The position numbers and the translations under genes are program-made. The notes under the pieces are model-generated. The model searched no databases and was not told the origin of the DNA. It saw only the letters and a list, made by a program, of their open reading frames with translations. 37,798 bases of DNA from a virus. This document shows, in pieces, positions 185 to 28,487 of this stretch (its first letter is position 1; each line of letters starts with the position of its first letter). The DNA lies in UHGV virus genome UHGV-1315295; one strand, given 5' to 3'.

Positions 185-1348
185 ATGTTCACGGTAAATC
201 ATCAAACCAACAGGATTAGTCCTGTTAGGACAAAGAAGTTCAGTGAGTTGGGCTTTACTGAGCGCAAGCATCTTCAGGAGTGGTTGGCACACGAACCTTC
301 CGCACTCGGTGAAGAGTTGTTGATTATTCAAAAAGAGTTCGATGGCTTTGATGACACCCGTGAACGCTTAGATTTACTGGCACTGGATAAAGATGGCAAC
401 TTGGTCATTATTGAAAACAATCTGGACGACAGTGGCCGCGATGTGGTGTGGCAGGCGCTTAAATATGCCTCCTACTGCGCAAGTTTAACCAAAGCGCAAA
501 TCGTTGAAATTTACCAGCAGTACTTAGACCGCTATGAGCCTGTAACAGGAGAGGTTGACTTGTTTAATACCCCTGCAAGTGCCTCTGCTAGAATATGTGA
601 GTTTTTGGATGCGCCCGATCTCGATGAGTTAAAGCTCAACCTGGGTAACAGCCAGCGCATTATGTTAGTTGCGGCAAACTTTCGCAAAGAAGTGACCAGC
701 ACCGCGCTGTGGTTATTGGGTCAAGGCATTAGCATTGCCTGCTTCAAAATCACGCCTTATTCACTGGGTGAACAGCTACTGATTAATATTGACCAGATCA
801 TTCCAACGCCAGAAGCGAAAGAGTTGATGATCGGCATTAATGCCAAGGAAGCGGAAGAAAAAACCACCGAAGTGGTACTAAAAAACCGCCATACCGTGCG
901 TCGCGAGTACTGGGAGCGTGCCTTAGAGGCGTTTCAGAAAAGCTCTTGCCAACTCTATAACAACATTAGCCCAAGCAAAGATCATTGGTTATCAGCAGGC
1001 TCAGGGCTAAGTGGATGTCCGTATAACCTGATATTTCTGCAAAAAGAGCTTCGAGTAGAGCTTTGGATCAGCCGTGGGGTTACCGAAGAGAATAAATACC
1101 TTTTTGATTTGTTGAGTCAGTCCAAACAAGACATTGAGCATACTTTTGGTGCAGAACTTGAGTGGATGAGGCTGGATGAGAAGAAATCTTGCCGTATCCA
1201 GTTTTCGACCAAAGCTGACGGGTTTAACAAAGAGACTTGGCCCCAAGCGGTTGCGTGGCACTTAGAGCAGATGACAAAGTTAGAAAAAGCCTTAAAAGGA
1301 CCGCTGCAAAAAGCGGCTGAGGCAATGAAACAGAAGAATTTTGATTAA
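185..1348 (+). CDS. Hypothetical 387-aa protein embedded between hsdS and hsdR; N-terminal restriction-endonuclease-like (PD-(D/E)xK-type) motif, C-terminal region unknown
   Basis: ORF track; AGGA 7 nt upstream of ATG 185; motif ELLIIQKEFDGFDDTRERLDLLALDKDGNLVIIENN followed by VVWQALKYASYCA resembles NucS-type nuclease cores but with E-N-N where E-x-K is expected; no Walker A so not PrrC-like. Confidence 0.5.
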   Translation: MFTVNHQTNRISPVRTKKFSELGFTERKHLQEWLAHEPSALGEELLIIQKEFDGFDDTRERLDLLALDKDGNLVIIENNLDDSGRDVVWQALKYASYCASLTKAQIVEIYQQYLDRYEPVTGEVDLFNTPASASARICEFLDAPDLDELKLNLGNSQRIMLVAANFRKEVTSTALWLLGQGISIACFKITPYSLGEQLLINIDQIIPTPEAKELMIGINAKEAEEKTTEVVLKNRHTVRREYWERALEAFQKSSCQLYNNISPSKDHWLSAGSGLSGCPYNLIFLQKELRVELWISRGVTEENKYLFDLLSQSKQDIEHTFGAELEWMRLDEKKSCRIQFSTKADGFNKETWPQAVAWHLEQMTKLEKALKGPLQKAAEAMKQKNFD

Positions 1349-1362
1349 GGGAACTTACAATT

Positions 1363-4300
1363 ATGGTCAGTCAAACCAATGAACAAGCATTAGAGTCGGC
1401 CATTGAGAAATGTCTGGCTGGGATCAGTACTGAAGAGCTCAAAGAGGGGCTGAGTCAGCAGTCACTGGGTGCTGGATACTTCATTGGTGCTGCTAGTGAC
1501 TTTAATATGCAATATGCCATTGATGAACGTTTTTTCTGGCAATTTCTGCAAAAGACACAAGAAGTAGAGTTGGCCAAACTGCAAAAGAACAACCCCTCAG
1601 ATTGGCAACGTAAGTTACTCGAACGATTTGACCGACTGATTAAGAAGCATGGCATTCTTCATTTACTTAAGAAAGGGCTAAGCGTAGACGATGCTCATTT
1701 CAATTTGCTCTATCCAGCCCCTTTGGCAAGTAGTAGTGAGAAGGTAAAGCAAAACTTTGCAGATAACGTGTTTAGTTGTACTCGCCAAGTGCGCTATTCC
1801 ATGGTAAATCCCCTACAAGAAATCGACATGGTATTGTTTATCAACGGAATACCCTTGATAACGCTGGAGTTGAAGAACGCATGGACCGGGCAAACAGCAC
1901 GTTATCACGGCCAAAAGCAGTATCGAGATGATCGGGATGCAACTCAGCCATTGCTGACCTTTGGCCGCTGCCTAGTGCATATGGCGGTCGATACCGACGA
2001 AGTGTATATGACCACCAAGTTATCAGGTAGCAGTACATTCTTCTTGCCGTTCAATAAAGGTCACAATCTTGGACAAGGCAACCCGCCGAATCCATCTGGC
2101 CATAAAACGGCATACCTATGGCAAGAAGTATTCACTAAAGACAGCTTGGCGAATATTATTCAGCATTTTGTGCGTCTGGATGGGTCAAGCAAAGATCCAT
2201 TACCCAAGCGAACCCTGTTCTTTCCTCGATACCATCAATTGGATGTGGTGAGAAAATTAGTAGACCATGCCGCCCAGCACGGTGTCGGTCAGACTTACTT
2301 AATTCAACACTCAGCCGGTTCAGGTAAGTCTAACTCGATTACCTGGGCAGCTTATCAGCTAATTGAAACCTATCCTGCTTCGTCTGATGTGGCAGGCGGA
2401 AAAAGCTTGGAGCAGCCGTTGTTTGACTCTGTGATTGTGGTCACCGATAGACGCCTATTGGACAAGCAGCTGCGGGATAACATTAAAGAGTTTTCTGAAG
2501 TAAAGAACATTATTGCCCCAGCGAATAAGTCTTCTGAGCTTAAGCAGGCGCTGGAGAATGGCAAAAAGATTATTATAACGACGATTCAGAAATTCCCGTT
2601 CATTATTGATGGTATCGCCGATCTTAGTGACAAGCGCTTTGCAGTGATCATCGATGAAGCACACAGCTCACAGTCTGGTTCGGCGCATGACAATATGAAC
2701 CGAGCGATGGGCAAGTCTGAAGTCGAAGAGGCAGAAGATGCTCAGGATAAAATCCTTCAGGCGATGAGATCGCGTAAGATGCGCGGGAATGCGTCGTACC
2801 TGGCATTTACAGCGACACCAAAAAACAGCACTTTGGAGAAATTTGGTCAACGCCAAGAAGATGGCTCTTACAAGCCGTTTCACTTGTATTCGATGAAACA
2901 AGCCATTGAAGAAGGCTTCATCTTGGATGTGCTGGCAAATTATACGACGTACAAAAGTTATTATGAGATTGAGAAATCAATTGCTGATAACCCTGAGTTT
3001 GATACCAAAAAGGCGCAGAAAAAACTCAGAGCTTATGTAGAACGAAGCCAGCAAACAATTGATATCAAGGCAGAGATTATGCTGGAGCATTTTGTTCCGC
3101 ATGTCGTGAATACGAAAAAGCTCAAAGGTAAAGGTAAAGGAATGGTGGTCACTCAAAATATTGAGGCGGCCATTCGATACTACAAAGCGATAAGGCGAAT
3201 ACTTGAGGAGCAAGGAAACCCGTTTAAAGTTGCCATTGCTTTCTCAGGAACCAAAGAAGTTGATGGTATTGAATATACCGAAGCAGATATTAATGGTTTT
3301 GCCGAGTCAGATACCAAAGATATGTTTGATACCGATGAGTATCGACTTTTAGTGGTTGCTAACAAGTATCTGACTGGGTTTGACCAGCCTAAGCTTTGCG
3401 CCATGTATGTAGATAAGAAGCTCGCCAGTGTCTTGTGTGTTCAGGCGCTATCTAGGCTCAATCGCAGTGCACCTAAGCTAGGGAAGAAAACAGAAGACTT
3501 GTTTATCCTGGATTTTTTCAACTCGGTTGAAGATATTCAATCAGCATTCGATCCTTTCTATACAGCAACGTCATTGTCCCAAGCTACAGATATAAACGTA
3601 CTGCACGAGTTGAAAGATGAAATGGACGATGTCGGTGTGTACGAGTGGTATGAAGTTGAAGACTTTGTGACGCGTTATTTCAAGAATGAAGACGCCCAAA
3701 CACTCAGTCCAATCATTGATATTGCCGCAGCGCGGTTTGACCATGAACTAGATCTTGAAGCTGAAGCTAAAGTGGACTTTAAGATTAAAGCCAAACAGTT
3801 CGTTAAAATCTATGGGCAGATGGCTTCTATCATGCCTTATGAAATGGTCAGCTGGGAAAAACTGTTTTGGTTCCTGAAGTTTTTAATACCGAAATTGAAA
3901 GTGGAAGATCCCGATGCTAATGCTATTGATGAGCTTCTCGATTCTGTCGATCTGAGTTCATACGGTTTGCAACGTGTGAAGCTTAACCACAGCATTAAAC
4001 TTAGTGACCAAGAAGCGGAGCTTGATCCTCAAAATCCGAACCCACGTGGGGTGCATGGCGGTGAAAAAGAAACTGACCCGCTGGATGAAATCATTCGCAC
4101 ATTTAATGAGCGATGGTTCCAGGGCTGGAGTGCCACACCTGAAGAGCAAAAGGTTAAGTTCGTGAACATCGCTGAAAGTATCCGCAATCACCCTGACTTC
4201 GAATCGAAATACAAAAACAACCCAGATCCCCATAATCGAAATTTGGCCTTCGAAAAAATGCTCAAGGAAATCATGCTGCAACGCCGTAAAGATGAACTTG

Positions 4301-4380
4301 AGCTCTACAAGTTGTTCGCAGGAGATTCAGCATTTAAAGCCTCGTGGACGCAAAGTATGCAACGAATGGTGGGTAGGTAG
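1363..4380 (+). CDS. hsdR: Type I restriction enzyme R subunit (HsdR), DEAH-box helicase/nuclease
   Basis: 1005 aa; N-terminal nuclease motif [18 protein letters not shown]; Walker A GSGKSNS; DEAH box IIDEAHSS; size and order typical of HsdR. Confidence 0.9.
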
Positions 4381-4394
4381 AAAGGAGTGATGGT

Positions 4395-5080
<686 letters not shown>

Positions 5081-5260
5081 CCACTTCATCTACACTCGCG
5101 GCATTGGAAGCAAAGATATGGTCGTCTGGCACCTGATGCACATTGATAAGGCTATCAACCACACGCTGGAGAAGTTCTTTCCACCAGCCTGAACACAATG
5201 ATTGTGCGCCTTATAGCGCCCATTAAGATAGATAAGTACTTACCAATAAGGAGAAAACAC

Positions 5261-5536
5261 ATGAAGACTTTGGTTCGCATTTCATCTAGTACCGACTATG
5301 ACGTTTACCCGTTGTTCATGATCAAGTGCGACGGGCTGAACGATGAAGAAATTCAAGCGGCAATTGAACGCAATCTAGTTGAATACACAGGAATGGATGC
5401 GGATTCTATTTATATCGATGATGACGGTGTTTGTTGGCACAACGGTAGCTGCTGGTACGTCGACGACACAATGCTGGTAAGCGATGAAGACGCGGCCCAT
5501 CTTGAGCGCATTTTGGGTATCAGCACTTTTGAGTGA
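5261..5536 (+). CDS. Hypothetical small acidic protein (91 aa)
   Basis: ATG 5261 preceded by AGGAG; ORF track frame; start context AGGAGAAAACACATG shared with other genes in the window. Confidence 0.45.
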   Translation: MKTLVRISSSTDYDVYPLFMIKCDGLNDEEIQAAIERNLVEYTGMDADSIYIDDDGVCWHNGSCWYVDDTMLVSDEDAAHLERILGISTFE

Positions 5537-5751
5537 TATTTACAGCAAAAATATATAAGTTAGCATTTACCTATCATTAAAATTTTATTAGATATCACGT
5601 TACTTATTACCTCGATAGCCTTTGTGCTCGACTGCATCTTCACAGGGGCAATCCGTAAAGCGCTGGCGCCTGTTAATGATGTGATGATCAATGCGCTGGC
5701 CGTAGTACTGGTCTTCGACTCAGCATTAGGCGTTTTCAAAGGAGTCGTGGC

Positions 5752-6087
5752 ATGAAGAAAACAGCCCTGGTACTGGCGCTGCTCACTCTCCCCGTCTTTG
5801 CGGACACACATGTCTATGAGTGCGAAATGTTTGTGGTCGAAGCGAAAAACGGCCTGATCCGCAACGTCGTCAAAGCTAATTACGGCGCGATGGTTGTGGA
5901 CCGCGGCGAACAGTTTTATGTGGTACGCGATAATCGTGTCCTGTCTTCCCCGTTTCTCACTAAACGTAACGGCGAACTATCTGGCGTAGGTAAAGATAGG
6001 TTCGTTTACAACAAATCGGGTGATGTATACGGCGTTCACGCGAAGAACGACAGCTACCTTTTCGATGACTGCAAGGAGATTAGTTGA
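5752..6087 (+). CDS. Hypothetical secreted protein (predicted N-terminal signal peptide)
   Basis: MKKTALVLALLTLPVFA-DTH: charged N-terminus, hydrophobic core and A-x-A-like cleavage region; GGAG RBS. Confidence 0.5.
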   Translation: MKKTALVLALLTLPVFADTHVYECEMFVVEAKNGLIRNVVKANYGAMVVDRGEQFYVVRDNRVLSSPFLTKRNGELSGVGKDRFVYNKSGDVYGVHAKNDSYLFDDCKEIS

Positions 6088-6299
6088 TGGCGGTTACACT
6101 GACAGGTCTGGAAATCGAAAAAACAAGCGGCTACTGGCGTGCCAAAGGGTTCAAGCAGTCCGGCGTACTGGAACGACTGGAACGTGAAGATGGGTATATT
6201 GTTCACCAGCGACGTGAATGGCGCATGTACGATCCGGAAACAGGTAAGCTCGCAACGAAGGCCGGGACACTCTGGGGTCTGCTGAAGAAAATCCACTGA
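6084..6299 (+). CDS. Hypothetical protein (71 aa)
   Basis: ORF track; start overlaps the upstream stop, suggesting translational coupling with 5752-6087. Confidence 0.4.
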   Translation: MMAVTLTGLEIEKTSGYWRAKGFKQSGVLERLEREDGYIVHQRREWRMYDPETGKLATKAGTLWGLLKKIH

Positions 6300-6308
6300 T
6301 AACACTAT

Positions 6309-6946
6309 CCACTGCGGTGAGTAGCCAGCTCACCGCGTGTGAATCCGGCTCATAACCACTGTAGCGAGTAGAACACCCTTCAGGTATGCACCCCAACCAC
6401 TGTAGTGAGTAGAACACCATTCGGGTATGCACCCCAACCACTGTAGTGAGCAACCCCCCTGCCACGATATCAACTATCCACTGTAGTGAGTAAATTGGTG
6501 ATTATCGGGGTCGCTATACACTGTAGTGAGTAAACAGGCGTTCACTGACTACAAACAACCACTATAGAGAGTGATGGAATGCTCCCTCCAGCGGATATCC
6601 ACTATGGAGAGTAAATCTTCGCTGTTTTAAACGGATATCCACTCACTACAGTGGATAGAGGTCAAGTCAGCCAATTCTGCTCTTCACAGTGGATAGTCAA
6701 CAATGAGGAGAGCGACGATAACCGCTGTAGAGAGTAGACTTAACAGAGATACCCAGTGACCGCTAACCTCTCAGCCCTTGTTTTATCTATGTTTGCAACC
6801 ACTAACATTTACTTCGCGATTTGTGCGCACTGCCTACAGTGGTTATTCTTCGGTTTCTTTTACTCACTACAGTGGATATTGCATTTCCGATAAACAAAAA
6901 GGCTCACTACAGTAGATAGTGAGCCTTTTTACTCTCTACAGTGGTT
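6309..6946. repeat. Iteron array downstream of repA (incA-like copy-control locus): about 15 copies of CCACTGTAGTGAGTA-type repeat in both orientations
   Basis: Copies at 6309-6323, 6356-6370, 6397-6411, 6438-6452, 6478-6492, 6518-6532, 6559-6573, 6599-6613, 6722-6736 (forward) and 6641-6654, 6682-6696, 6834-6846, 6861-6878, 6903-6918, 6931-6946 (reverse); includes a 41-bp tandem duplication 6356-6396/6397-6437. Confidence 0.8.
6896..6930. terminator. Bidirectional hairpin terminator at the repA 3' end, incorporating an iteron
   Basis: AAAAA-AGGCTCACTA-cagtag-TAGTGAGCCT-TTTTT: 10-bp perfect stem with A-run and T-run on either side. Confidence 0.5.
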
Positions 6947-6949
6947 GGG

Positions 6950-8005
6950 CTATTTGCGAGCCTTTGCCTTGCGCAGCTCTTCGAGAATCGCCAGTTCTTC
7001 CTTGCTCAACATGACCATTTCCCCGTCTTTTTCTTCAGGGGCAACATCGATAATGTCCTCCGGATCATCACCTGGCAAGATATCTTCTGGCTCTTCAGGC
7101 GTAGCCATAGATGGCGGCAGTGCCGAACGTAACTTCGGCCGTCTATAGTGGATGACGAAGTAGACCGAGCTGCCGCGTTTCACTTCAGTGTAATCGAGAT
7201 AGCCGATCTCTCGCAGCTGCTCCATCGCCTTCCTGACTGTCGCATTCTGGGTAATGGTGCGGCTGGTTAAGTTAAGTCTGGCGCGTAAGCGAGCCAATGA
7301 GATTGGCGCCGGGTCTGGTGGCAAACTTTCAATGAAGGTGTAGAGCGCCTGCGCGGATTCTTTTCTGGAGAGTTCGTTGATGGCCCGAAGTTGCAAAAGC
7401 ACCTTTTTGTCGAACTGGTAAAGTTCGAAAATCTTAGGATCGGCCTTCAGTTCGACCGTGTCATTCTTGGTACTGTACTTTGCCGTCTGCACAAGGTGCG
7501 TAACGTAATACTCTTCAGAGCCTTTGCTGCGGAATGAGATGGTGTTTGTGGCGATACGACTTAGAGAGCTGTCCAGGCGCTTACGTAACTTCGCGGACGA
7601 TCTGGCTGTTGGTATGCCACAAAGTCTGACGAACTCGACGAACGGCAACGTGACGGTGTCACCAACAACCTTGTGCTTGGCGAACGCGTGGATGATGCCC
7701 ACCCATGTTTTGAAATCGTTATCCATATCAAGACGAAGACCAGCAATCCTTATATCCTCGTACCCTTCGGCTTTGGCCAGAGACAGCTGTTTGAGTTCAG
7801 CGGAGGCGTCCATAGAGACCATTTGCCCCTTTCTACCCCTGGATGTCGATTTCAGCGTCGGAACGAAGAGACCAAGACGCATCAGAGCAACAGGTTGAAC
7901 TGTGTTGTTGGTGTTAGGAACTAACGTAACAACTTCGCCGGTCTTTTTGTCTGTTTCGGAAAATGCTTCGCTTATCGCAATGTTTTTATTGTCGTTTACG
8001 CTCAT
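6950..8005 (-). CDS. repA: Replication initiator RepA (P1/IncY-type iteron-binding initiator)
   Basis: 351 aa; blocks [64 protein letters not shown] match my recollection of P1 RepA; flanked on both sides by iterons. Confidence 0.8.
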
Positions 8006-8048
8006 TCCAAATGTCTCTTTTTATTCGACGGCTTGGGTGCCTTTACTG

Positions 8049-8168
8049 ATTACAGTGGATAGTAGCACCCATCACAGTGGTTATCCTACCGCCTACAGCG
8101 GTTTTTCTACTCTCCATAGTGGTTGATTTACTCTCTATAGTGGTTGTTATTCTCACTATAGTGGATAT
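8049..8168. repeat. Iteron cluster 1 upstream of repA (origin/incC-like), 6 copies
   Basis: ACAGTGGATAG, CACAGTGGTTAT, CTACAGCGGTTTT, CTCCATAGTGGTTG, CTCTATAGTGGTTG, CACTATAGTGGATA; same family as the downstream iterons. Confidence 0.75.
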
Positions 8169-8214
8169 CGATAACCTCTAAAGCCATGTGGCACAACGGT
8201 TTGCAGGGGCCGGG

Positions 8215-8273
8215 GATCTCTTTGGGTCTTTGTGGTTCTCTTTGGTTCTAACAGGGATCTGAATTACTGGATC
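8215..8273. promoter_or_regulatory. GATC cluster 1 (3 Dam sites) adjacent to iteron cluster 1
   Basis: GATC at 8215, 8256, 8270 within GGGATCTC / GGGATCTG / GGATCGAG heptamer-like units. Confidence 0.4.
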
Positions 8274-8446
8274 GAGCCTGTGTATAAAAATCAGATAATT
8301 ACAAAATCAGGCATCACTCCCCTTCTGGGGATAATGTGTGATCGAAATAAACACGCCGCAACGCAAAATTTACAATATTTCCAAGAATATCAGCCATCTG
8401 CCGCAGAAAAACAGGCTCGGAGTTATCCAGTTAAAACATTGTCTCC

Positions 8447-8551
8447 TACTCACTACAGTGGATACCGACTACTCTCCAGAGAGGTTGTTTTGCTCTTCAT
8501 AGCGGTTATTATGCTCTCTACAGTGGTTATTTTGCTCCCTATAGTGGATAG
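8447..8551. repeat. Iteron cluster 2 (5 copies), a second origin-like module
   Basis: TACTCACTACAGTGGATA, CTCTTCATAGCGGTTAT, CTCTCTACAGTGGTTAT, CTCCCTATAGTGGATAG plus one degenerate copy. Confidence 0.7.
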
Positions 8552-8590
8552 TAACCCCTTCTCAAGCCAGTAACCGCAAGCGCTGGAGAC

Positions 8591-8648
8591 GATCGGGGAT
8601 CTCTTTTGATCTTCTGTAGGATCTCTCTGGGGATCTAAATATTGGATC
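8591..8648. promoter_or_regulatory. GATC cluster 2: six GATC sites in 58 bp
   Basis: GATC at 8591, 8598, 8608, 8620, 8632, 8645; the flank resembles the 8205-8280 segment (duplicated module). Confidence 0.5.
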
Positions 8649-8747
8649 GGACCTGTGAATAAAGTGAATAAGTAAACAGGCATTTGCAAACTCCGGTGCG
8701 CCTTATCCGTTATCGTTGCCCCGGACAAAATTATTTGAACAAGAATT

Positions 8748-9392
8748 ATGGATCTTAAACGCACGCGCTGGGTTCGCCGTCTTGAAGATGGCTCCTACAC
8801 CATTGAATCAAACACTAGTCTGAACAAACTGAAGTTGCTCTGCGACCTTTGCGGCATTGCTTCGAAATGCCCGATTAACGAAACCCGGCTTAAACTCCAC
8901 GACGCCGGTGCGCATTTCCACCTAAACAGCTGCATACGTTACGTGCCACTACTAGCATTTCGTAAACCGATCATCGGATTGGATGCTCCCTACTTCAACA
9001 CACTGCGCTCTGGTGTCACTTGGCGAGATCGTGTCGAACCTGGCAAACTCGTTTGTCTGGTTGAAGCTGATACCGGAAATATCATCCGGTTCGGGAGAGT
9101 TGATAAGGTCTACTCAGGCCCGGTGGATGAAATGCTGCGGAAACACAGCCGATTTAACCATCTCTGCATGGGCGGAGAGAAGATTGAGAAGGTTGGCGAA
9201 GTAATTCGCAAATCTTACGGACACTTTCTGAATGATAACAGCCTTCTGACAGCCATTTACATTCGCCATGTCGATCGGGAGTTCGACACGGAGTATCACA
9301 GTGTTGAAGAGTTGAATCTTGTAGACCCTCGTCCAAAAGCTGGGGTAATAGACATCAGCAGAGCGCGTCAGAAGCCCTCAGAGACGTTTTAA
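8748..9392 (+). CDS. Hypothetical protein (214 aa)
   Basis: ORF track; first gene after the origin-like region. Confidence 0.5.
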   Translation: MDLKRTRWVRRLEDGSYTIESNTSLNKLKLLCDLCGIASKCPINETRLKLHDAGAHFHLNSCIRYVPLLAFRKPIIGLDAPYFNTLRSGVTWRDRVEPGKLVCLVEADTGNIIRFGRVDKVYSGPVDEMLRKHSRFNHLCMGGEKIEKVGEVIRKSYGHFLNDNSLLTAIYIRHVDREFDTEYHSVEELNLVDPRPKAGVIDISRARQKPSETF

Positions 9393-9788
9393 AGGCAAAC
9401 TCATGCTTTTTACCGGGCATAAAATATGGTGTCTTAGAAAGACACTGAGAGCTTTAGGGATTAATGCATGAGTGAATTTTATTCAAGAGCAGAAACTGTG
9501 GCCGACGGATGCGTTTGAAGACGACGCACGCAAACGCCGTAGATGTCATCTCACAACTTCACCGTCCGTTCTCCTTTTTCATTTCTTGTCATCAGTAAAT
9601 GACTGCTCTCATAAAATTGCTTGTGACGTTTAGAAATCGTTGCTGCCCTATCTGATAGGTATTTACTTACTTATTTTTTTGTCATTATCATGTGCCTTTA
9701 TATTCTTTTGTGTTCCGTGTTGTCTGGGTTGTATGCCTCTTATGCACGCTTAGAATTTGTATCAAAATAACCACAAAGGAAAAGACAC

Positions 9789-10874
9789 ATGACATTGCCA
9801 TACGGGGTAATATCAGATCCCCATTATCATCGTTGGGATGCTTTTGCGACAACAAACGCTGACGGGCTTAACTCTCGGCTGGAGATCCAACTGGACGCTA
9901 CGAAGGAGGCGGCCAAAGCGATGAAAGCTGCTGGCTGTAAGCACATGCTGGTAGCTGGTGATACCTTCCATGTTCGCGGTGCTATATCACCTTCCGTTCT
10001 GCATTTCGTGACCGAAACTTACGAGTGGATCATCAAAGAGTTGGGTCTCAAGGTGGTAATGCTGGCTGGCAACCACGACCTCGAAACCAACAATTCCGTA
10101 TACAGCGCCAATGCAGCAGCCTCTCTGCGCTCAATCGGTGTGGAAATCGTCTGCGGCAAACGTCCTCATTCCATCAAAATGGGCGACGTAACCGTCCATC
10201 TGATTAGCTGGCGTAATAACCACGCAGAACTTATCAGCGATCTCAAAACGCTGCGTTCCGGGCTGGATGGTGACAACCATGATGTTGTTGTACATACCTC
10301 AATCAACAAAGCGATCCCCACCATGCCCGATGTCGGCATCGACGCACAGGAACTGAAAGATATCGGCTTCCGTTTATTGTTGTCCGGGCACTACCACAAC
10401 CACAAAGAAGTGCTGCCTGGAGTGGTAAGTATCGGGGCGCTGACACACCAGAATTGGGGGGATGTTGGTTCACTGGCCGGCTTCATGATCGTCAAACCGG
10501 ACGGCTCATTCACTCACCACGAAACCTCGGCACCTAAATTCGTGAACCTTGAGGACGATGTAGATGACGATCAGATTCGCGGCAACTACGTGCGCTTCCG
10601 TGCCGTTGTTGAGAGCGATGAAGAAGGCATCAAACTTCAGAACGTCCTGAAAACAATGGGCGCGAAGGGTGTCGTCTGCAACTTCATTCGCAAGGCATCG
10701 ATGATGGAAGGCGCTGCCAGTACTGCGGAAACCAGCAAAATTGACAGCCTGGGCGAGTCCGTTGCGGCGTACTGCAAGATCGTTCACGACACTGACGGTG
10801 GCTTCGACCTGAGCAAGCTGGACATACTGTGTCAGGAGATCTTGACCGAAGCAGAGAGTGCGGAGGCTGTGTGA
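9789..10874 (+). CDS. sbcD: SbcD/Mre11-family metallophosphoesterase nuclease
   Basis: Motifs DPHYH, GDTFH, GNHD, GHYH typical of calcineurin-like phosphoesterase nucleases; immediately upstream of an SbcC/Rad50-like ATPase. Confidence 0.75.
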   Translation: MTLPYGVISDPHYHRWDAFATTNADGLNSRLEIQLDATKEAAKAMKAAGCKHMLVAGDTFHVRGAISPSVLHFVTETYEWIIKELGLKVVMLAGNHDLETNNSVYSANAAASLRSIGVEIVCGKRPHSIKMGDVTVHLISWRNNHAELISDLKTLRSGLDGDNHDVVVHTSINKAIPTMPDVGIDAQELKDIGFRLLLSGHYHNHKEVLPGVVSIGALTHQNWGDVGSLAGFMIVKPDGSFTHHETSAPKFVNLEDDVDDDQIRGNYVRFRAVVESDEEGIKLQNVLKTMGAKGVVCNFIRKASMMEGAASTAETSKIDSLGESVAAYCKIVHDTDGGFDLSKLDILCQEILTEAESAEAV

Positions 10875-10915
10875 GGCAACGTTATTATGGGAGCTTTCGA
10901 GAGTTTGCCATCGTG

Positions 10916-11107
10916 ATGAAAAAACTTCAAAAAGGCCAGACGGTTATGTTTCACAAGCCATACCCTTCAGGAGGAAATCCCGTAGCGTTTTATCTTGGAA
11001 GGCTAACCAGAAAAGGCTTATTGAATCGCAGATCCTTCCCCGCGCATACGGAGTTCAGATTGAAAGATGGTCAAAAGTTAACACACGATATCAGAGGTGT
11101 TATATGA
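10916..11107 (+). CDS. Possible small protein (63 aa) in the sbcD-sbcC gap, stop overlapping the sbcC start
   Basis: ATG 10916 in frame with track ORF 10829-11107; TGA 11105-11107 overlaps ATG 11104; weak RBS. Confidence 0.25.
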   Translation: MKKLQKGQTVMFHKPYPSGGNPVAFYLGRLTRKGLLNRRSFPAHTEFRLKDGQKLTHDIRGVI

Positions 11108-13020
11108 AGTTTTTAAAGCTCCAGGTTGAAAATTTTATGGCAATCGCCAGCGCAGAAGTCGAGTTAGACCAGCGTGGACTGGTGCTGATCCAGGGTGTGA
11201 ACAGTGGCGATACGTCTGCTGCCAGCAATGGCGCCGGGAAATCCACTCTGATGAATAGCTTAATGTGGTGTCTGTATGGTGAGACTGCACATGGCGTCAA
11301 AGGCGATGATGTGCTGTCGACGGGCCATGAGAAGAACTGCCGTGTGATGGTTACAGTTGAAGACGAAGGTAAGAAATACGCGATCATTCGCCATCGTAAA
11401 CACAAAGAGTTCAAGAACCGACTAATCGTCCGTGGTGAAGACGGTGATATGACCAAAGGCAAGGACACGCTGACACAGACGTTCGTAGAACGTCTGATTG
11501 GGGCATCGAAAGAGGTGTTCATGGCGTCCATCTACGCCAGTCAGGAAGCGATGCCAGATCTGCCCGGTATGTCCGACAAGAGCCTCAAAACCATCGTTGA
11601 AGAAGCTGCTGGCGTCGACCGATTGACGCGAGCCTATGCCATTGCCCGCGAGCGTGCTAATGCAGCTGCCGCACGTATGGACGTTACCAAATCCAAAATG
11701 GACGCCTGTCTCACGCTTATCGAGACTGCACAGTCAGAGATTGAGGCGGCCAAAGCGTCCTCTGAAAGCTGGGAGCGCGATCGCGGCGAGCGTCTGGACA
11801 AGGCCCGAGCCGATTTGGCTGGCGCGGAGGTAACACTGTCTGAAGTCGAGATGGAAATTCGCTCGCTGCCGGAACAGATCCGTGATACGGAAAACGCGAT
11901 TGCTGGCGAACGCAGCAAGCTGGCCTCCAAAGAAGAGCATGACGCCAAACTGCTGAAGGTGCGCAGTGCTATTACTGAGATCCACTCAAGCATCCGTACT
12001 TCAGAAGCGGCACAGAACGAGTCGATAAACCGTGCTCGCTCGTTTAAAACCAAAGCTGAAGAGGTCAGCACAAAGATCGGGGCACCCTGCATTACGTGCG
12101 GAAAGCCCTACTGCGAAGAAGATTTATCCACGGTGAAGGAGAGCTTCATTGAACAAGCGCGCAATGAGATCGGCCTTGCGCAGACATCAGCAGCGGCAGT
12201 GGCTCAACACAAGGCTCGTCTTGAGAAAGCGCTCGGTATCGAGTCTGCACTGGTCGCAGCCACACCCGACGTCTCAGAAATCATCTCCACAATAGAACGC
12301 CTGACCAATGAGCTAAGTGCGCTGCGTCATCGCGAACGTGAAGTTGTGGCCGTCGAAGCGATGGTTGCGCGGGCGCGTACTGAAGTGAATCGCATCATGG
12401 CGGAAGCAAACCCATTTCTGGCCGTTATTAAGCGCCATGAAGACAACCTGGCTGCCAATAAATCTAATCATGCAGTACTTAAAAATGAGTTAAAGAGCAT
12501 TCAGGAACAGGCTCTGTTGCTGGAGAAGGCCCGCCAGGTTTACTCCCCAGCAGGCGTGCGTTCACACATCCTGACCTCCGTTACGCCTTTCCTGAACATC
12601 AGGACTGCGGAGTATCTCAACACGCTGTCGGACGGCAATATCGTTGCCGAATGGTCGACAATGGAGACAACGAAGAAAGGTGAGTATCGCGACAAATTCA
12701 ATATCAGCGTAATCAAAACAGGCTCCAGCAAATCCTTCCAGACTTTGTCTGGTGGTGAGAAGCGTAAGGTACGTATTGCGTGCTCTCTGGCTTTGCAGGA
12801 TCTGGTTGCCAGTCGCGCCAGTAAGAATATCGAGCTATTTATCGGTGATGAAATTGACGACGCGCTCGACACAGCCGGTCTGGAGCGTCTCATGGGGATT
12901 CTGGAAGCCAAAGCGCGTGAACGTGGCACAGTGATGATCATCTCCCACAAAGAGATGAAATCGTGGTTCCGGGAAATTATCACTGTCGAAGTTAAAGAGG
13001 GGCGCAGCTATGTCGTTTAA
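11104..13020 (+). CDS. sbcC: SbcC/Rad50-family ATPase with zinc-hook CxxC
   Basis: Start MKFLKLQVENF with GAGGTG RBS; Walker A GAGKST; CITCGKPYC hook near 12086-12112; ABC signature LSGGEKRK; Walker B LFIGDEIDD. The track start 10858 gives an implausible N-terminal extension. Confidence 0.75.
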   Translation: MKFLKLQVENFMAIASAEVELDQRGLVLIQGVNSGDTSAASNGAGKSTLMNSLMWCLYGETAHGVKGDDVLSTGHEKNCRVMVTVEDEGKKYAIIRHRKHKEFKNRLIVRGEDGDMTKGKDTLTQTFVERLIGASKEVFMASIYASQEAMPDLPGMSDKSLKTIVEEAAGVDRLTRAYAIARERANAAAARMDVTKSKMDACLTLIETAQSEIEAAKASSESWERDRGERLDKARADLAGAEVTLSEVEMEIRSLPEQIRDTENAIAGERSKLASKEEHDAKLLKVRSAITEIHSSIRTSEAAQNESINRARSFKTKAEEVSTKIGAPCITCGKPYCEEDLSTVKESFIEQARNEIGLAQTSAAAVAQHKARLEKALGIESALVAATPDVSEIISTIERLTNELSALRHREREVVAVEAMVARARTEVNRIMAEANPFLAVIKRHEDNLAANKSNHAVLKNELKSIQEQALLLEKARQVYSPAGVRSHILTSVTPFLNIRTAEYLNTLSDGNIVAEWSTMETTKKGEYRDKFNISVIKTGSSKSFQTLSGGEKRKVRIACSLALQDLVASRASKNIELFIGDEIDDALDTAGLERLMGILEAKARERGTVMIISHKEMKSWFREIITVEVKEGRSYVV

Positions 13021-21236: not shown

Positions 21237-21830
21237 ATGATCGCAGCCGAAAAAATCAAAAAGCGAGAGCGTGATGCCTCTCTTCGCGACCTTTGGCGAA
21301 CACCGCAGTGGTTGTTTGTCGCCATCCAACGTTACATAGGCGTAAAGTTCGATGTGGACGTCGCCTGCAACAAAGATAATGCTCTCCTGCTGAACTTTAT
21401 CGGTGTTGAGCGTGATGCGCTCAAGTGCAGTTGGGGAGAACCTGGCACTGTGGCGTTCCTTAACCCGCCCTACTCCAAAATCACCCCCTGGATAGACGCA
21501 GCCATTCGCGAGCAGGCGCGTGGAGTGACGACGGTCATGCTGATACCACAATCCCTCGATACGCAGTGGTACGAGCGTGCGGCTGAATGCGCCAACGAAA
21601 CCGTCATCTTGTCTGGCGGCCGCGTGGCGTTCGTTGAGCCGGATGTTGAACTTGGGCTGGTGGAGGTGAACATCAACCCTGGTGGCAGCATGTTGCTTAT
21701 CTTCCGTGGCTACTGTCAGGAAGCTGGGCACACCATCAGCAAGATACCGCTGGCGGTGATGAAAAAGCTGGGTGGTTATGACCCTGCCAATGTTGTCAGG
21801 AAGAAGAGACCACGTAAAAAGGCAGCGTAA
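21237..21830 (+). CDS. Phage-type N6-adenine DNA methyltransferase (Dam-like)
   Basis: LWRTPQWLF...VDVACNKDNA...AFLNPPYS (NPPY catalytic motif); layout typical of phage Dam-type methyltransferases. Confidence 0.75.
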   Translation: MIAAEKIKKRERDASLRDLWRTPQWLFVAIQRYIGVKFDVDVACNKDNALLLNFIGVERDALKCSWGEPGTVAFLNPPYSKITPWIDAAIREQARGVTTVMLIPQSLDTQWYERAAECANETVILSGGRVAFVEPDVELGLVEVNINPGGSMLLIFRGYCQEAGHTISKIPLAVMKKLGGYDPANVVRKKRPRKKAA

Positions 21831-24412: not shown

Positions 24413-25228
24413 ATGTTTGAGGTAACTGCACACGCTCCCAGCACCACAGGCTTACATGCCAGGCCATCGATGACCAGTCAGGAGATCGCCGAAATGGTCG
24501 GCAGTCGCCATGACAGCGTAAAACGCACCATTGAAAGACTCGCTAAATCCGGCGTTATTACTTTTCCACCAATGGTGGAAAAGCCCACTGCCGGGCGTCC
24601 GGCTACGTTTTACTTGTTCGAAGCCGAACAGGGTAAGCGCGACAGTATCGTTGTCGTGGCACAGCTTTCTCCTGAATTTACCGCACGTCTTGTTGATCGG
24701 TGGAGAGAGCTTGAATCCATGTTTGCCTACCACGGAACGCCTGCTATTCCGCGTACCTATAAAGAAGCGCTGGTTCATTTGCTGCGCCAGGTTGAGGAAA
24801 ACGAGCGTCTGGAGAGTGAGAACGAGGCGTTGGGCGTAGCACTATCCAACGCAAAGCCAAAAGCCATTCTCATGGACACCATTTGCGGCACTGCTGATGA
24901 ACTTTATGGGTTGAATGAAGCCGGTCGCATTCTCGGCACGTCCGGGGCTGTTCTGGGGGCGCTGATGGATTCGCTGGGTGATGTGTATGTTAAGCGCAAA
25001 TACACCACAGTTAGTCGCCAGTTTCTCAAGATCTTCATTGACCGTGGATATGGCAAAAATGTTGTCATCGGAAACGGTCGCAACCAGGCCAAGTTCACCT
25101 TTAAAGGGCTTTGCTTTGCAGCTGTGAAACTAATTGCAGCCGGGTTGATTGCCTCCAGCGCCATTGAATATGAGCCGTGTCGTGAGCATGTCGAACGTGC
25201 AATGAAGGAATCCAAACGTCTTCATTGA
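24413..25228 (+). CDS. Rha-family phage regulatory protein (putative antirepressor)
   Basis: N-terminal MTSQEIAEMVGSRHDSVKRTIERLAKSG resembles the Rha domain; alternative start ATG 24470. Confidence 0.65.
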   Translation: MFEVTAHAPSTTGLHARPSMTSQEIAEMVGSRHDSVKRTIERLAKSGVITFPPMVEKPTAGRPATFYLFEAEQGKRDSIVVVAQLSPEFTARLVDRWRELESMFAYHGTPAIPRTYKEALVHLLRQVEENERLESENEALGVALSNAKPKAILMDTICGTADELYGLNEAGRILGTSGAVLGALMDSLGDVYVKRKYTTVSRQFLKIFIDRGYGKNVVIGNGRNQAKFTFKGLCFAAVKLIAAGLIASSAIEYEPCREHVERAMKESKRLH

Positions 25229-25336
25229 CCGTCAGTATGGACGTCCACCTTTATGTAGCGTTTGGCCACCTTTTCAGTCACGTCACAATAACACAATTGA
25301 GAAAACAACTTGTTTAAAAGCATAAGGAAAAAACAC

Positions 25337-25909
25337 ATGTGCGAAAAATGCAAAAAAACTAATGCCAAAGTTGAAAGCGTGATTAAAAAAGTTGGTGCGG
25401 CCGAACTGGTTGAGATCATGGGTCTTGTGGTTGGTCACGAAGACGACGCCTCCCCTATTGACCGCCTTTTCAGCGTTCTCAAGTTCTCAAGCATGATTGA
25501 TGATCCGATTGAAATTGTGATGCTGGCGCGTCATTTCGGCGAAGCGTATCTGGAAGAGAAAGAACGCGCCGACAAACTTCAGGCAACTCTGGAAATGGTA
25601 AGCAAGCCGAAGTGCTCACCGGATTCAGTCAAGGCAGATGAAACCAACGCCAGCAAAGATCGTGAAATCGCCGGGTTGAAGTCTTCTCTGGCGATGTTGC
25701 TGGCCGCCTTCAAACTGATGTCTTCCCAGGCTGGATTCAAAATGCCTGAGCTGAACAGCGACGATCCGATGGCCGTTCGCCAGCTGCTGGGGGCAATGGC
25801 CGACCAGCTTGACGACACCAAGAGCCGTCTTGAAGACATGATGCGCGAGCTGACCCACCGCCACAACCTGAACAAACAGCCGTACAAAACGCAGCACGTA
25901 CACCTCTAA
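25337..25909 (+). CDS. Hypothetical protein (190 aa)
   Basis: ATG 25337 with AAGGAAAAAACACATG context. Confidence 0.5.
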   Translation: MCEKCKKTNAKVESVIKKVGAAELVEIMGLVVGHEDDASPIDRLFSVLKFSSMIDDPIEIVMLARHFGEAYLEEKERADKLQATLEMVSKPKCSPDSVKADETNASKDREIAGLKSSLAMLLAAFKLMSSQAGFKMPELNSDDPMAVRQLLGAMADQLDDTKSRLEDMMRELTHRHNLNKQPYKTQHVHL

Positions 25910-25926
25910 TCTCTCACCTGCGTACA

Positions 25927-25947
25927 GGGGACGAAAGCCCCCTTTTT
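25927..25947 (+). terminator. Rho-independent terminator
   Basis: GGGG-acgaaag-CCCCC followed by TTTTT. Confidence 0.5.
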
Positions 25948-26022
25948 ACGTCTTAAATCAGCTGCAACGCCTGTGAATGCTGCTTTTACGCCTTTTTAGC
26001 TTTGAGAAAATAACACCAATAA

Positions 26023-26039
26023 GAAAACAATTTGTTTAA
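26023..26039. promoter_or_regulatory. Palindrome GAAAACAATTTGTTTAA (family 2) 10 nt upstream of ATG 26050
   Basis: Inverted repeat AAACAA/TTGTTT; one of 13 copies. Confidence 0.4.
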
Positions 26040-26049
26040 TGGTGCAATC

Positions 26050-27735
26050 ATGAATACAGCCCTTTCCATCATTGACGCTTTCACCCCAAACACTGATATC
26101 GACTACCGGCAGGAAATGAACGTCATTCACGAAATAGTGGTCGAGTGCGAGAAAGAGATCGCATTCATGCATCAGGTTCACGACTTCGTTTATGGCGACG
26201 AACGCCACAGCATGATTAACCGCTTGCTGCGGCTCAATCACCGGCCGGACGACGAGCGCACACGCTTTAACAGAACCTGGCTGGACAAAGTCGACCTGGA
26301 ATGGGTGAAACAAAATATCTGGGCCGAGTACTGGAAGAAGGTCACGGATATGACCAACGTTCTGCTGATCATGCCAGCATCCCGCCGCGACGAGTGGCGT
26401 GAACAGTTTATCGAGGGCAAGCAGGAAACGATCAAGACTGACAGAACTGGCTATCAGATGAAGGTTAAAGAGTTCGTTGGTGTACCTGAGTTCAAAGCAG
26501 AAACGGTCATACCAACGATGCTTAATTTGCTGAATGACAGGCACAAATATCTCTCTGAGCGCGTGTATGGCTTGTTTAAGGCGTTGAGTCCTGCTCACAA
26601 GACCAATAAAACGAACGGCTTCAGCGAACGTCTGATCATCGCCGACTGCATTTCCGATTTCTGGCGGGACAGCGTCAGCGTTAACTACCGGAAAGAGGAT
26701 TACATAGACGACCTGCGCGTCATGTTGCATTTCTTTGCACACAAAGAATTTATCACCATCAACCGCACGGCCGAGATGCTGTCAGCTGCGTATCGAGCAA
26801 ATGACTGCCAGACCGGCGACTGGATGAATGTCGACGGAAATCTGATGCGTGTGAAGATGTTTAAGAACGGCAACGTTCACTTTGAAATACATCCTGACGT
26901 AGCCTGGAAGCTGAATGAGGTGCTGGCTTACAGTATGCCCGCTGCAATTCCGGCTCCATGTCGTACTGCGCCCAAAACACGGGCACCAAAACAGTTCGGG
27001 TTAATCCAGAAGACGATCTCCGAGCCGGTGCGTACTGCGCTTCGCGACGGGCGATCTGGCAATGACAAACGCGTATGGTACTTCTCTGATTCCGGTCTCC
27101 AGAAGTCACAGGTGGAAGAGCTGGAGCGTACACTGAGCTTTATTGGCGGCGTGCAGGAGAACAAGCACTGGCAGTTCCCGTATGAGATCGGCCATACGCT
27201 CAATACGATTGTGGCCACCGGCTTAATACCGGATACAAAATCACACCAGTTCTACCCTACTCCGCGTTTGATAGCGGAGTACGTTGCCAGAGCCATCGAG
27301 CTGAAGCCAGGTGAGAAGCTGCTGGAGCCTGAAGCCGGGCGCGGAGATCTGCTGGCCTGCATCGACGCCAATCCGGAAGACGTTACCTGCATAGAAGTCG
27401 CACCTCTCTTCGCTGATATCCTGCTTGGCAAGGGGTACACAAATACGGTCTGCTGCGACTTCATGAAGTGGTCTGAGGACAACGCAGGTTATCAGTTCGA
27501 CAAAATCGTCATGAACCCGCCCTACTCTCTTGGCCGTCACAGAGAGCATACGCTGGCCGCGCTGGAGCATCTTAAAGTCGGCGGGCGACTGGTGGCTGTA
27601 CTGCCGGGTGATGCGCCAGTTCTGAACTGGATGTCGCTGGATAATTACGTTTATGCCAAAGGGAAGTCGTTTACTGACGAGTTTGAAGACACCGGGATTA
27701 CTGTCAGCGTATACGTTTTTAAACGCGTTAAATGA
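26050..27735 (+). CDS. DNA methyltransferase fusion protein: ~380-aa N-terminal domain of unknown function plus C-terminal N6-adenine methyltransferase domain
   Basis: C-terminal QFYPTPRLIAEYVA (motif X-like), LEPEAGRGDLL (AdoMet motif I-like), IVMNPPYS (motif IV); N-terminal 380 aa has no motif I recognise. Confidence 0.65.
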   Translation: MNTALSIIDAFTPNTDIDYRQEMNVIHEIVVECEKEIAFMHQVHDFVYGDERHSMINRLLRLNHRPDDERTRFNRTWLDKVDLEWVKQNIWAEYWKKVTDMTNVLLIMPASRRDEWREQFIEGKQETIKTDRTGYQMKVKEFVGVPEFKAETVIPTMLNLLNDRHKYLSERVYGLFKALSPAHKTNKTNGFSERLIIADCISDFWRDSVSVNYRKEDYIDDLRVMLHFFAHKEFITINRTAEMLSAAYRANDCQTGDWMNVDGNLMRVKMFKNGNVHFEIHPDVAWKLNEVLAYSMPAAIPAPCRTAPKTRAPKQFGLIQKTISEPVRTALRDGRSGNDKRVWYFSDSGLQKSQVEELERTLSFIGGVQENKHWQFPYEIGHTLNTIVATGLIPDTKSHQFYPTPRLIAEYVARAIELKPGEKLLEPEAGRGDLLACIDANPEDVTCIEVAPLFADILLGKGYTNTVCCDFMKWSEDNAGYQFDKIVMNPPYSLGRHREHTLAALEHLKVGGRLVAVLPGDAPVLNWMSLDNYVYAKGKSFTDEFEDTGITVSVYVFKRVK

Positions 27736-27797: not shown

Positions 27798-28487
27798 ATG
27801 AGCAATCTTCCGTTAGAGCGTTTTAACGTCAAAAGCCATGCCGACTTTCCTTTCAAATTTGTAATGAGAGGTTATGCAGAGGAAGCAGTAGGCCAGATCA
27901 TCATTGACAAAGGCATTGTTAAGTTTGAAGGGGATTATGATGAATCCGCGAAAACATTCATAGACTTCGTTGCTAAACGTTGGAGCGAGCAATGGAGAGA
28001 CCTGGAAAAACGTGCTCGTGAATTTGATGCATTCATGTCTGCAATTGATACAGAAAAAACGGCTCTGGCTGCGGGTACTCCGTTAGATTTGGAGTCTCTG
28101 TTTAAAGGTGAAATGGCCTCTACGATGTTCGCAACCATGTTTGCCGGTGAGTTTGTTCGTAGCGGGGCCAGAAACTACCTGGAGCTGGGGTACGACGTTC
28201 CTGAAATGGGTGAGTTTACCGTCACCATTCAACGCAAAGAAGGTAAGACTCCTGGCGAACGTATCGCTGAACTTGAGGCCGTTGTGGATCAGCGTAACGG
28301 CGAGTGCGTCCGTTTGATTAATGAACGTGATGCGCTGCGCGAAGAGCAGCTAAACAAAGGCTCGAACACACGCGCGGCCGCAGACATCTACTTCCAGTTG
28401 GTTGAGGAATGCCAGATCCCGCCAGGTGGCTCTTTGGTCGAGTTCGTTCGCGAATTGCAGGAGAAAGCAGAGAGGTGCGCGGCATGA
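27798..28487 (+). CDS. Hypothetical protein (229 aa)
   Basis: ATG 27798 with GAGAAAAAACACATG context. Confidence 0.5.
   Translation: MSNLPLERFNVKSHADFPFKFVMRGYAEEAVGQIIIDKGIVKFEGDYDESAKTFIDFVAKRWSEQWRDLEKRAREFDAFMSAIDTEKTALAAGTPLDLESLFKGEMASTMFATMFAGEFVRSGARNYLELGYDVPEMGEFTVTIQRKEGKTPGERIAELEAVVDQRNGECVRLINERDALREEQLNKGSNTRAAADIYFQLVEECQIPPGGSLVEFVRELQEKAERCAA

Follow-up and report, generated by a model that had tools for sequence, protein, structure and literature searches.

A gene at positions 26050-27735 of a 37,798-nucleotide stretch of viral DNA (UHGV virus genome UHGV-1315295; the whole stretch is hereafter called the window) raises the question of how a predicted adenine-N6 methyltransferase without a recognition domain of its own engages its substrate, and what the large region in front of its catalytic domain contributes. 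Judged by sequence identity, the window is part of an E. coli SSU5-like (pHCM2-type, IncFIB-typed) phage-plasmid: the 4-kb region around the gene shares 93% nucleotide identity with Salmonella phage SSU5 and is 98-99% identical to E. coli plasmids of ~100-117 kb. The gene is the full-length, collinear counterpart of SSU5_095 (annotated as a "DNA methyltransferase") and has the same neighbours. Its product of 561 amino acids (aa) is already held in identical form in the public protein collection (P0001), is covered over residues 1-561 by PHROG 6263 with an expect value (E) of 3e-296, and goes by the RefSeq names "DUF4942 domain-containing protein" and "class I SAM-dependent methyltransferase". 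It is thus a catalogued gene that a known element of this type would be expected to carry, rather than a system of a new kind.

The protein comprises (i) a DUF4942 module, (ii) a conserved basic linker, (iii) a small α/β domain, and (iv) a minimal methyltransferase domain of the gamma type. We give a little better than even chances to the reading in which adenine-N6 methylation of DNA by this protein would be protective, the DUF4942 module together with the small domain serving to engage the substrate.

Architecture of the DUF4942-methyltransferase protein

The preliminary description of this DNA, made from its letters alone, placed N6-adenine methyltransferase motifs in the C-terminal part of a 561-aa protein, behind ~380 aa of uncharacterised sequence. 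The motif assignment holds, as the frame is intact and contains the TP motif, EPEAGRGD, and NPPY. The region in front is indeed large but measures 395 residues when delimited by the modelled Rossmann domain, which occupies the last 166 residues of the protein. The catalytic motifs are HQFYPTP at residues 399-405 (TP at 404-405), LEPEAGRGDL at 424-433 (motif I), and NPPY at 489-492 (motif IV), with motif I preceding NPPY, which is the gamma order. In the AlphaFold2 model of the whole 561-aa protein, with a predicted local distance difference test (pLDDT) score of 90.5 and a predicted template modelling (pTM) score of 0.84, QFYPTP (400-405) is followed by a helix at residues 406-416. A TP-capped helix before motif I, together with NPP(Y/F), is a hallmark of the EcoKI/TaqI-like gamma class of DNA adenine methyltransferases (PMC5512222).

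In a family alignment of 85 homologues, reaching down to ~30% identity, residues Q400, Y402, P403, and T404, the signature E426-P427-x-x-G430-x-G432, and N489-P490-P491 (NPPY/F) are invariant or nearly so, with E426, P427, and G430 of motif I and N489 and P491 of motif IV being strictly unchanged. Against solved structures, the family profile finds M.TaqI best (E 2e-6), with the NPPY motifs aligned, and Erm/KsgA next (E 5e-5 to 1e-4). Structure comparison of the model matches the fold of the catalytic domain to solved adenine-N6 DNA methyltransferases, and the PADLOC matches to the window protein are type II methyltransferases and mad2. Since the polypeptide stops right after the last core strand, at residue 561, it has no C-terminal recognition domain.

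Relatives of the catalytic domain also reside inside giant phage proteins. One such protein is gp60 of Pseudomonas phage H66 (3787 aa), a "PLxRFG" protein listed as a virion component verified by mass spectrometry; another is a ParB/DdrB-like protein of 3421 aa from phage vB_Pun_Y3. PHROGs of 1259-3925 aa contain a related catalytic domain as well, and DarB-type anti-restriction enzymes are found in this kind of setting. In BLAST alignments to giant phage proteins, the matched part of the window protein starts no earlier than about residue 400. The PHROG 9133 match starts at residue 329 and covers the small domain and the methyltransferase together.

The label "uncharacterised" fits the N-terminal part with respect to function, but the sequence is not unseen, being covered by Pfam, PHROG 6263, and the RefSeq names. 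Pfam DUF4942 (PF13708) matches residues 140-295 of the window protein with E 1e-20 and 74.5 bits (cut-off 25), as well as 85 of 85 family members. Free-standing DUF4942 proteins of ~250 aa occur in small phages, some of them marine, for example in Pseudoalteromonas phage PS_L5 (251 aa; Pfam E 2e-46), and hhalign aligns window residues 16-303 with essentially the entire stand-alone protein (probability 99.9%, E 4e-33). Because the homology spans the whole stand-alone protein, the front half of the window protein is, by sequence comparison, a complete DUF4942 protein, of a family known to Pfam but still uncharacterised, to which a "linker + small domain + methyltransferase" unit is joined.

In the model, the DUF4942 module is laid out as variable helices (about 20-121), a β-hairpin (about 121-142) at which most of the 85 aligned sequences have a gap, and an α/β core (150-305). 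The linker (306-324) is modelled without secondary structure yet at high confidence, and the [IL]GG[VA] motif of the small domain stands between its second and third helix. Residues 90-305, the DUF4942 core, are basic (median isoelectric point (pI) of the family, 8.8), and their conservation across the 85 sequences is 0.55, compared with 0.53 for the catalytic domain. W95, H277, N289, and a DLR motif are invariant in the family. The variable stretches of the alignment are residues 1-89, 121-140, 331-360, and 526-540, with 331-360 being the most variable.

Searches with phmmer and two profiles return no credible structure-solved relative of the N-terminal part, nor is there a fold relative in the PDB. 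In the BFVD collection of viral structures, the N-terminal part matches two stand-alone proteins (247 and 271 aa), both uncharacterised, and nothing else.

The open frame spans 26032-27735 on the plus strand, with an ATG at 26050 giving 561 aa and a TTG at 26032 giving 567 aa; as relatives are annotated with 561 or 567 residues, the start position is uncertain by six codons. The ratio of nonsynonymous to synonymous substitution rates (dN/dS) against SSU5 is 0.058 for the whole gene, 0.034 for residues 1-305, 0.19 for residues 306-395, and 0.048 for the catalytic domain. Since this ratio is low overall and in each half, the gene appears functional with both halves constrained, and by this measure it is under strong purifying selection. 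An inactive gene is ruled out for the window copy, which is full length, retains every invariant residue, and has the low overall ratio given above.

Substrate engagement and probable role

In the favoured reading, the enzyme would methylate adenines in the element's own DNA during replication, and incidentally host DNA, and this methylation would shield the phage-plasmid from restriction on entering a new host. In holding the DNA and presenting the base, the enzyme would rely on the basic, conserved DUF4942 module and on the small domain. A Dam-family enzyme encoded elsewhere in the window is a separate second orphan, also present in phage SSU5. We infer an anti-restriction role for these orphan methyltransferases. 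With no recognition domain attached to the catalytic core, contact with the substrate falls most naturally to the N-terminal part, and to that extent the earlier suggestion of an N-terminal recognition domain stands. It is weakened by the conservation of the module, which equals that of the catalytic core, and by the occurrence of free-standing DUF4942 proteins in phages. A recognition domain that diversifies should vary far more. Given that DUF4942 and the catalytic core are conserved to the same degree throughout a very broad family, a single conserved specificity, or a low one, is probable for the enzyme, unless the module has a role other than sequence read-out.

Several observations weigh against protective DNA methylation with DUF4942 as the engaging module: (i) the Pfam N6_Mtase (PF02384) score of the window protein is 15.3 bits, under the gathering score of 20.4; (ii) Pfam MTS is matched by 61 of the 85 family members and N6_Mtase by 11 (E<=0.01); (iii) the top structural match of the catalytic domain, at 18% identity, is METTL5, an rRNA N6-methyladenosine (m6A) enzyme; (iv) a structure search recognises no DNA-binding fold in the N-terminal model; (v) stand-alone DUF4942 genes occur with no methyltransferase nearby; and (vi) 55 of 242 E. 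coli carriers match <80% of the gene, namely only its first ~450-480 nucleotides (nt), and the gene seems dispensable for the element, as it is a pseudogene in both short copies examined. On account of the first three, DNA as the substrate is not proven, although it is well supported by context.

The prevalence of MTS, the commonest catalytic-domain match in the family, and the profile match to Erm/KsgA would suit an RNA methyltransferase, that is, a METTL5/Erm-like m6A enzyme acting on host rRNA or tRNA with DUF4942 as an RNA- or ribosome-binding module. The best sequence matches, however, are DNA enzymes (M.TaqI in the profile comparison, and the type II methyltransferases and mad2 in PADLOC), and the TP-capped helix is typical of EcoKI/TaqI-like DNA enzymes. 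Giant phage proteins contain relatives of the catalytic domain, in one case fused to a ParB-like domain, and the family is restricted to phages, prophages, and plasmids. We therefore consider action on RNA very improbable.

The free-standing DUF4942 proteins bear on a different alternative, in which the protein is two counter-defence functions in one: DUF4942 would be not a recognition domain but an autonomous effector, such as an inhibitor or decoy of a host defence or DNA-processing factor, which would work by itself in many phages and here be fused to a low-specificity methyltransferase so that the two act jointly. Stand-alone genes of ~250-280 aa lie in early regions of 33-36-kb phages or phage-like contigs (L008, 3698-4453; L009, 1988-2815; L011, 6001-6837), where all of their neighbours are unannotated. 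No methyltransferase was detected beside the stand-alone genes examined, the ~200-aa neighbours having no Pfam match even at E<=1. As DUF4942 occurs alone in phages, it is not merely a recognition domain. The homology over the entire stand-alone protein and the enzyme-like conservation of W95, H277, N289, and the DLR motif are likewise what an effector would lead one to expect. Furthermore, a DUF4942 gene is listed in the SRL pathogenicity island, in a run with a KlcA/YfjX homologue, RadC-like genes, and a toxin-antitoxin pair (PMC6980539), and polyvalent proteins, in phages and plasmids alike, routinely combine counter-defence domains that are unrelated to one another (PMC5512222).

The arrangement of the fused family speaks for a single cooperative machine instead. 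Among 1.84 billion cluster representatives, HMMER identifies 360 clusters (50% identity) at E<1e-30; almost all of the 150 clusters listed have a length of 500-580 aa and align with most of the query. Fusion order and linker are maintained across the 360 clusters, and the model, with the pTM score given above, is a single rigid body. In addition, the catalytic domain has no other recognition domain, and the window protein matches no known anti-defence family. An independent effector function for DUF4942 is thus a serious alternative but, in our judgement, a rather unlikely one.

A further view is that DUF4942 is an autonomous module whose fold is as yet unsolved and whose partner is DNA or a host defence factor, and that phages use it either alone or fused to an adenine methyltransferase lacking a recognition domain. 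In its fused form the enzyme would be a "hypermethylase" of broad or low specificity, able to blunt many restriction-modification (R-M) systems at once and amounting to a compact, non-injected counterpart of DarB-type enzymes. The locus would also be a swap site, at which phage-plasmids trade this counter-defence gene for a full type I R-M system. We regard this view as speculative and unlikely.

A weak, split DUF4942-like match (23% identity) extends over two short hypothetical open reading frames (ORFs) of an S. Infantis SARB27 contig (6680-7564), upstream of rhuM, and is probably a decayed DUF4942 gene. The same region also contains rmbA, fidL, and marT and is presumably SPI-3.

Genomic setting of the gene and other features of the window

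The fusion family is confined to phages, prophages, and plasmids of Proteobacteria. The same fusion is found in temperate phages of Aeromonas, Pseudomonas, Vibrio, and Marinomonas, within early regions: in Aeromonas phage 56 the gene lies between ant and ninG, and in phiPSA1 it lies near exonuclease, ssb, and integrase genes and adjoins a second methyltransferase. A scan of one genome per species yields 80 loci in Gamma-, Beta-, and Alphaproteobacteria. Clustering of all ORFs within 6 kb at 77 of these loci reveals no conserved partner gene or cognate nuclease; the most frequent neighbour family is present at only 7 of the 77, and the recurring neighbours are prophage early genes (CI/S24 repressor, lambda-type integrase, YqaJ exonuclease, PAPS-reductase-like protein, SNase, and YdaS/Cro). 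The window genes on either side (25310-25909 and 27798-28487) have no nuclease or defence-family match. The lack of a cognate nuclease and of a fixed partner makes the DUF4942-methyltransferase a true orphan, and the description of two orphan methyltransferases in this element is upheld. The searched literature on SSU5, pHCM2, and phage-plasmid orphan methyltransferases contains no experimental characterisation of any member of the family.

A Rha/Ant anti-repressor gene (24413-25228 in the window) lies upstream of the methyltransferase gene in SSU5-like elements, separated from it by one small gene. Aeromonas phage 56, which is unrelated, has a Rha/Ant-type gene directly upstream of the fusion gene (4036-6344). 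This proximity may be coincidental or may reflect a shared early-operon arrangement. On Logan contig SRR5240292_184 (116 kb; 3314-12551), a 37%-identical member stands among a ParB-like helix-turn-helix gene, a D12-class Dam methyltransferase, and a umuDC-like pair, a neighbourhood that we take by eye to be plasmid-style.

The two short E. coli copies examined (NZ_JCDPND010000004.1, 3501-7481; NZ_CP146657.1, 6001-12448) are annotated pseudogenes of ~157 codons that lack the C-terminus; the segment equivalent to what they retain is about 26050-26530 of the window. Each is directly followed, on the opposite strand, by a type I R-M cassette, with hsdR-hsdS in both and hsdM also in NZ_CP146657.1. 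The plasmids that carry them have rnhA intact in one case and frameshifted in the other. Defence and counter-defence genes may be swapped at this locus, which would then be an exchange hotspot. In the 99%-identical plasmid pYUXYEH3934-1 (NZ_CP110979.1, 32269-34532), IS421 and a "restriction endonuclease" gene stand in place of the Rha/Ant gene, a second sign of a plastic neighbourhood that collects restriction genes.

Table 1. Position, strand, and basis of assignment of the features described in the window.
Feature	Position	Strand	Basis
DUF4942-methyltransferase gene, 561 aa (SSU5_095 homologue; PHROG 6263)	26050-27735	+	Open frame, identity to SSU5
DUF4942 module, residues 1-305	26050-26964	+	Pfam PF13708, hhalign, AlphaFold2 pLDDT ~90
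Conserved basic linker, residues 306-324 (R..PK...K.F; pI 11.3)	26965-27021	+	Alignment, model
Small α/β domain, residues 325-395, with conserved [IL]GG[VA]	27022-27234	+	Alignment, model
Minimal gamma-type (EcoKI/TaqI-like) adenine-N6 methyltransferase domain, residues 396-561	27235-27732	+	Motifs, modelled Rossmann domain
Terminator-like hairpin and sigma-70-like promoter match, between upstream gene and methyltransferase gene	25926-26031	+	Consensus matches
Second orphan methyltransferase, 197 aa, phage Dam family, SSU5_088 homologue	21237-21830	+	Pfam Dam, TIGR01712, PHROG 111
Accessory type I R-M segment (DUF4268/PDC-S11 gene and hsdR)	185-4380	+	PADLOC
Replication origin region next to repA (6950-8005, minus strand)	8040-8660		Two iteron blocks, each followed by a GATC cluster

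The other features of interest in the window are listed in Table 1. The Dam-like enzyme proposed in the preliminary description is confirmed: the 197-aa product, the counterpart of SSU5_088, matches Pfam Dam (PF05869) with E 1.5e-36 and TIGR01712 with 111.6 bits, above the cut-off of 97.05, and contains LNPPYS. It is probably GATC-specific, as the characterised members of its family are. The type I R-M system that had also been reported is real, as hsdR (1363-4380) matches PADLOC REase_I with E 1e-41, but it is only partly contained in the window: the 3' end of hsdS lies at the window start, while hsdM and most of hsdS lie upstream and outside, as judged from the 99%-identical NZ_CP110979.1. 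An unusual fourth gene between hsdS and hsdR (185-1348) encodes a 387-aa DUF4268 protein (PADLOC candidate PDC-S11, E 4e-182). The segment is present in 2 of the 8 best-matching plasmids and absent from the other 6, and the type I R-M system is an accessory, recent passenger. The idea of layered self-protection by design is doubtful, since both orphan methyltransferase genes are common to SSU5 itself and the R-M system is an accessory insertion.

The origin next to repA is as rich in GATC as had been claimed. It contains iterons of ~20 bp in two blocks (...CTCTCCATAGTGGTT...) and 10 GATC sites in 500 bp among them (8215-8751), and a tight cluster of six GATC falls within 8591-8648, while the window as a whole has no excess (159 GATC vs 147 expected). 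The layout of iterons and GATC sites, which presumably resembles P1 oriR, suggests by analogy that initiation may be sensitive to methylation, and the element's own Dam-family gene could serve these sites. Ahead of the DUF4942-methyltransferase gene, the preceding gene ends in an 18-bp hairpin with a T-run after it (25926-25943), and a weak sigma-70-like match (26002-26031) precedes the frame; both are consensus matches only, and shuffled sequence gives as many.

These features invite a further alternative, in which the DUF4942-methyltransferase is an epigenetic regulator that marks specific sites on the phage-plasmid or host and thereby controls replication, packaging, or the choice between lysis and lysogeny, as Dam does for P1. 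Such a role would agree with the gene's location in an early or regulatory region, near a Rha/Ant gene in the window as in Aeromonas phage 56, with promoter-like and terminator-like signals of its own, and with the dense GATC clusters at the origin. For the GATC clusters, however, methylation by host Dam or by the Dam-family enzyme of the element is the simpler explanation; about one in four E. coli carriers has a truncated gene, and the family has no conserved neighbour. Regulation by this enzyme is therefore quite improbable.

The gene region is present in 567 PLSDB plasmids from Escherichia, Klebsiella, Enterobacter, Salmonella, and Citrobacter, and the gene is matched in 242 of 5426 complete E. 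coli genomes (4.5%), being plasmid-borne in every case. SSU5-like phage-plasmids are common in E. coli, Salmonella, Klebsiella, and Enterobacter, and the crossing of restriction barriers affects host range. These phage-plasmids are reported to carry and spread antibiotic-resistance genes (PMC9600943). The fusion family is large, and an assigned target would inform hundreds of annotated "DUF4942 domain-containing proteins". The interest of the system, worthwhile but modest, thus resides in the fold and function of DUF4942 and in the target of the enzyme.

Comparison with known systems

SSU5_095 and the other members of PHROG 6263 are the same gene as the one in the window, with no substantive difference; the window lineage additionally has a type I R-M system elsewhere. 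The catalytic domain resembles M.TaqI and the HsdM subunit of EcoKI in its TP-capped N-terminal helix, motif I, NPPY, motif order, and Rossmann fold. However, M.TaqI has a C-terminal recognition domain and HsdM relies on a separate HsdS, whereas the window protein has neither and carries ~395 residues in front instead. METTL5/PH1948-type enzymes are eukaryotic or archaeal rRNA methyltransferases with a partner protein, while the window family is limited to proteobacterial mobile elements.

The stand-alone DUF4942 proteins share with the fused family a common W and the motifs LS..[HY].TN, D-L-(D)R, and NGN.H. They differ in having no linker, small domain, or methyltransferase, and in the replacement of His183 of the fused family by Tyr.

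The DarB-type methyltransferase modules of polyvalent proteins (Iyer et al. 2017) have been proposed to methylate incoming DNA against restriction (PMC5512222). They are alike in that catalytic relatives of the window protein occur inside giant proteins, in belonging to the EcoKI/TaqI-like class, and in a likely anti-restriction role. In the DarB-type dyad, an SF2/SNF2 helicase follows the methyltransferase, whereas the window protein has no helicase and is only 561 aa long. Directly N-terminal to the DarB-type methyltransferase lies LPD36, a domain of four helices with a GxGU motif, and residues 325-390 of the window protein occupy the equivalent place.

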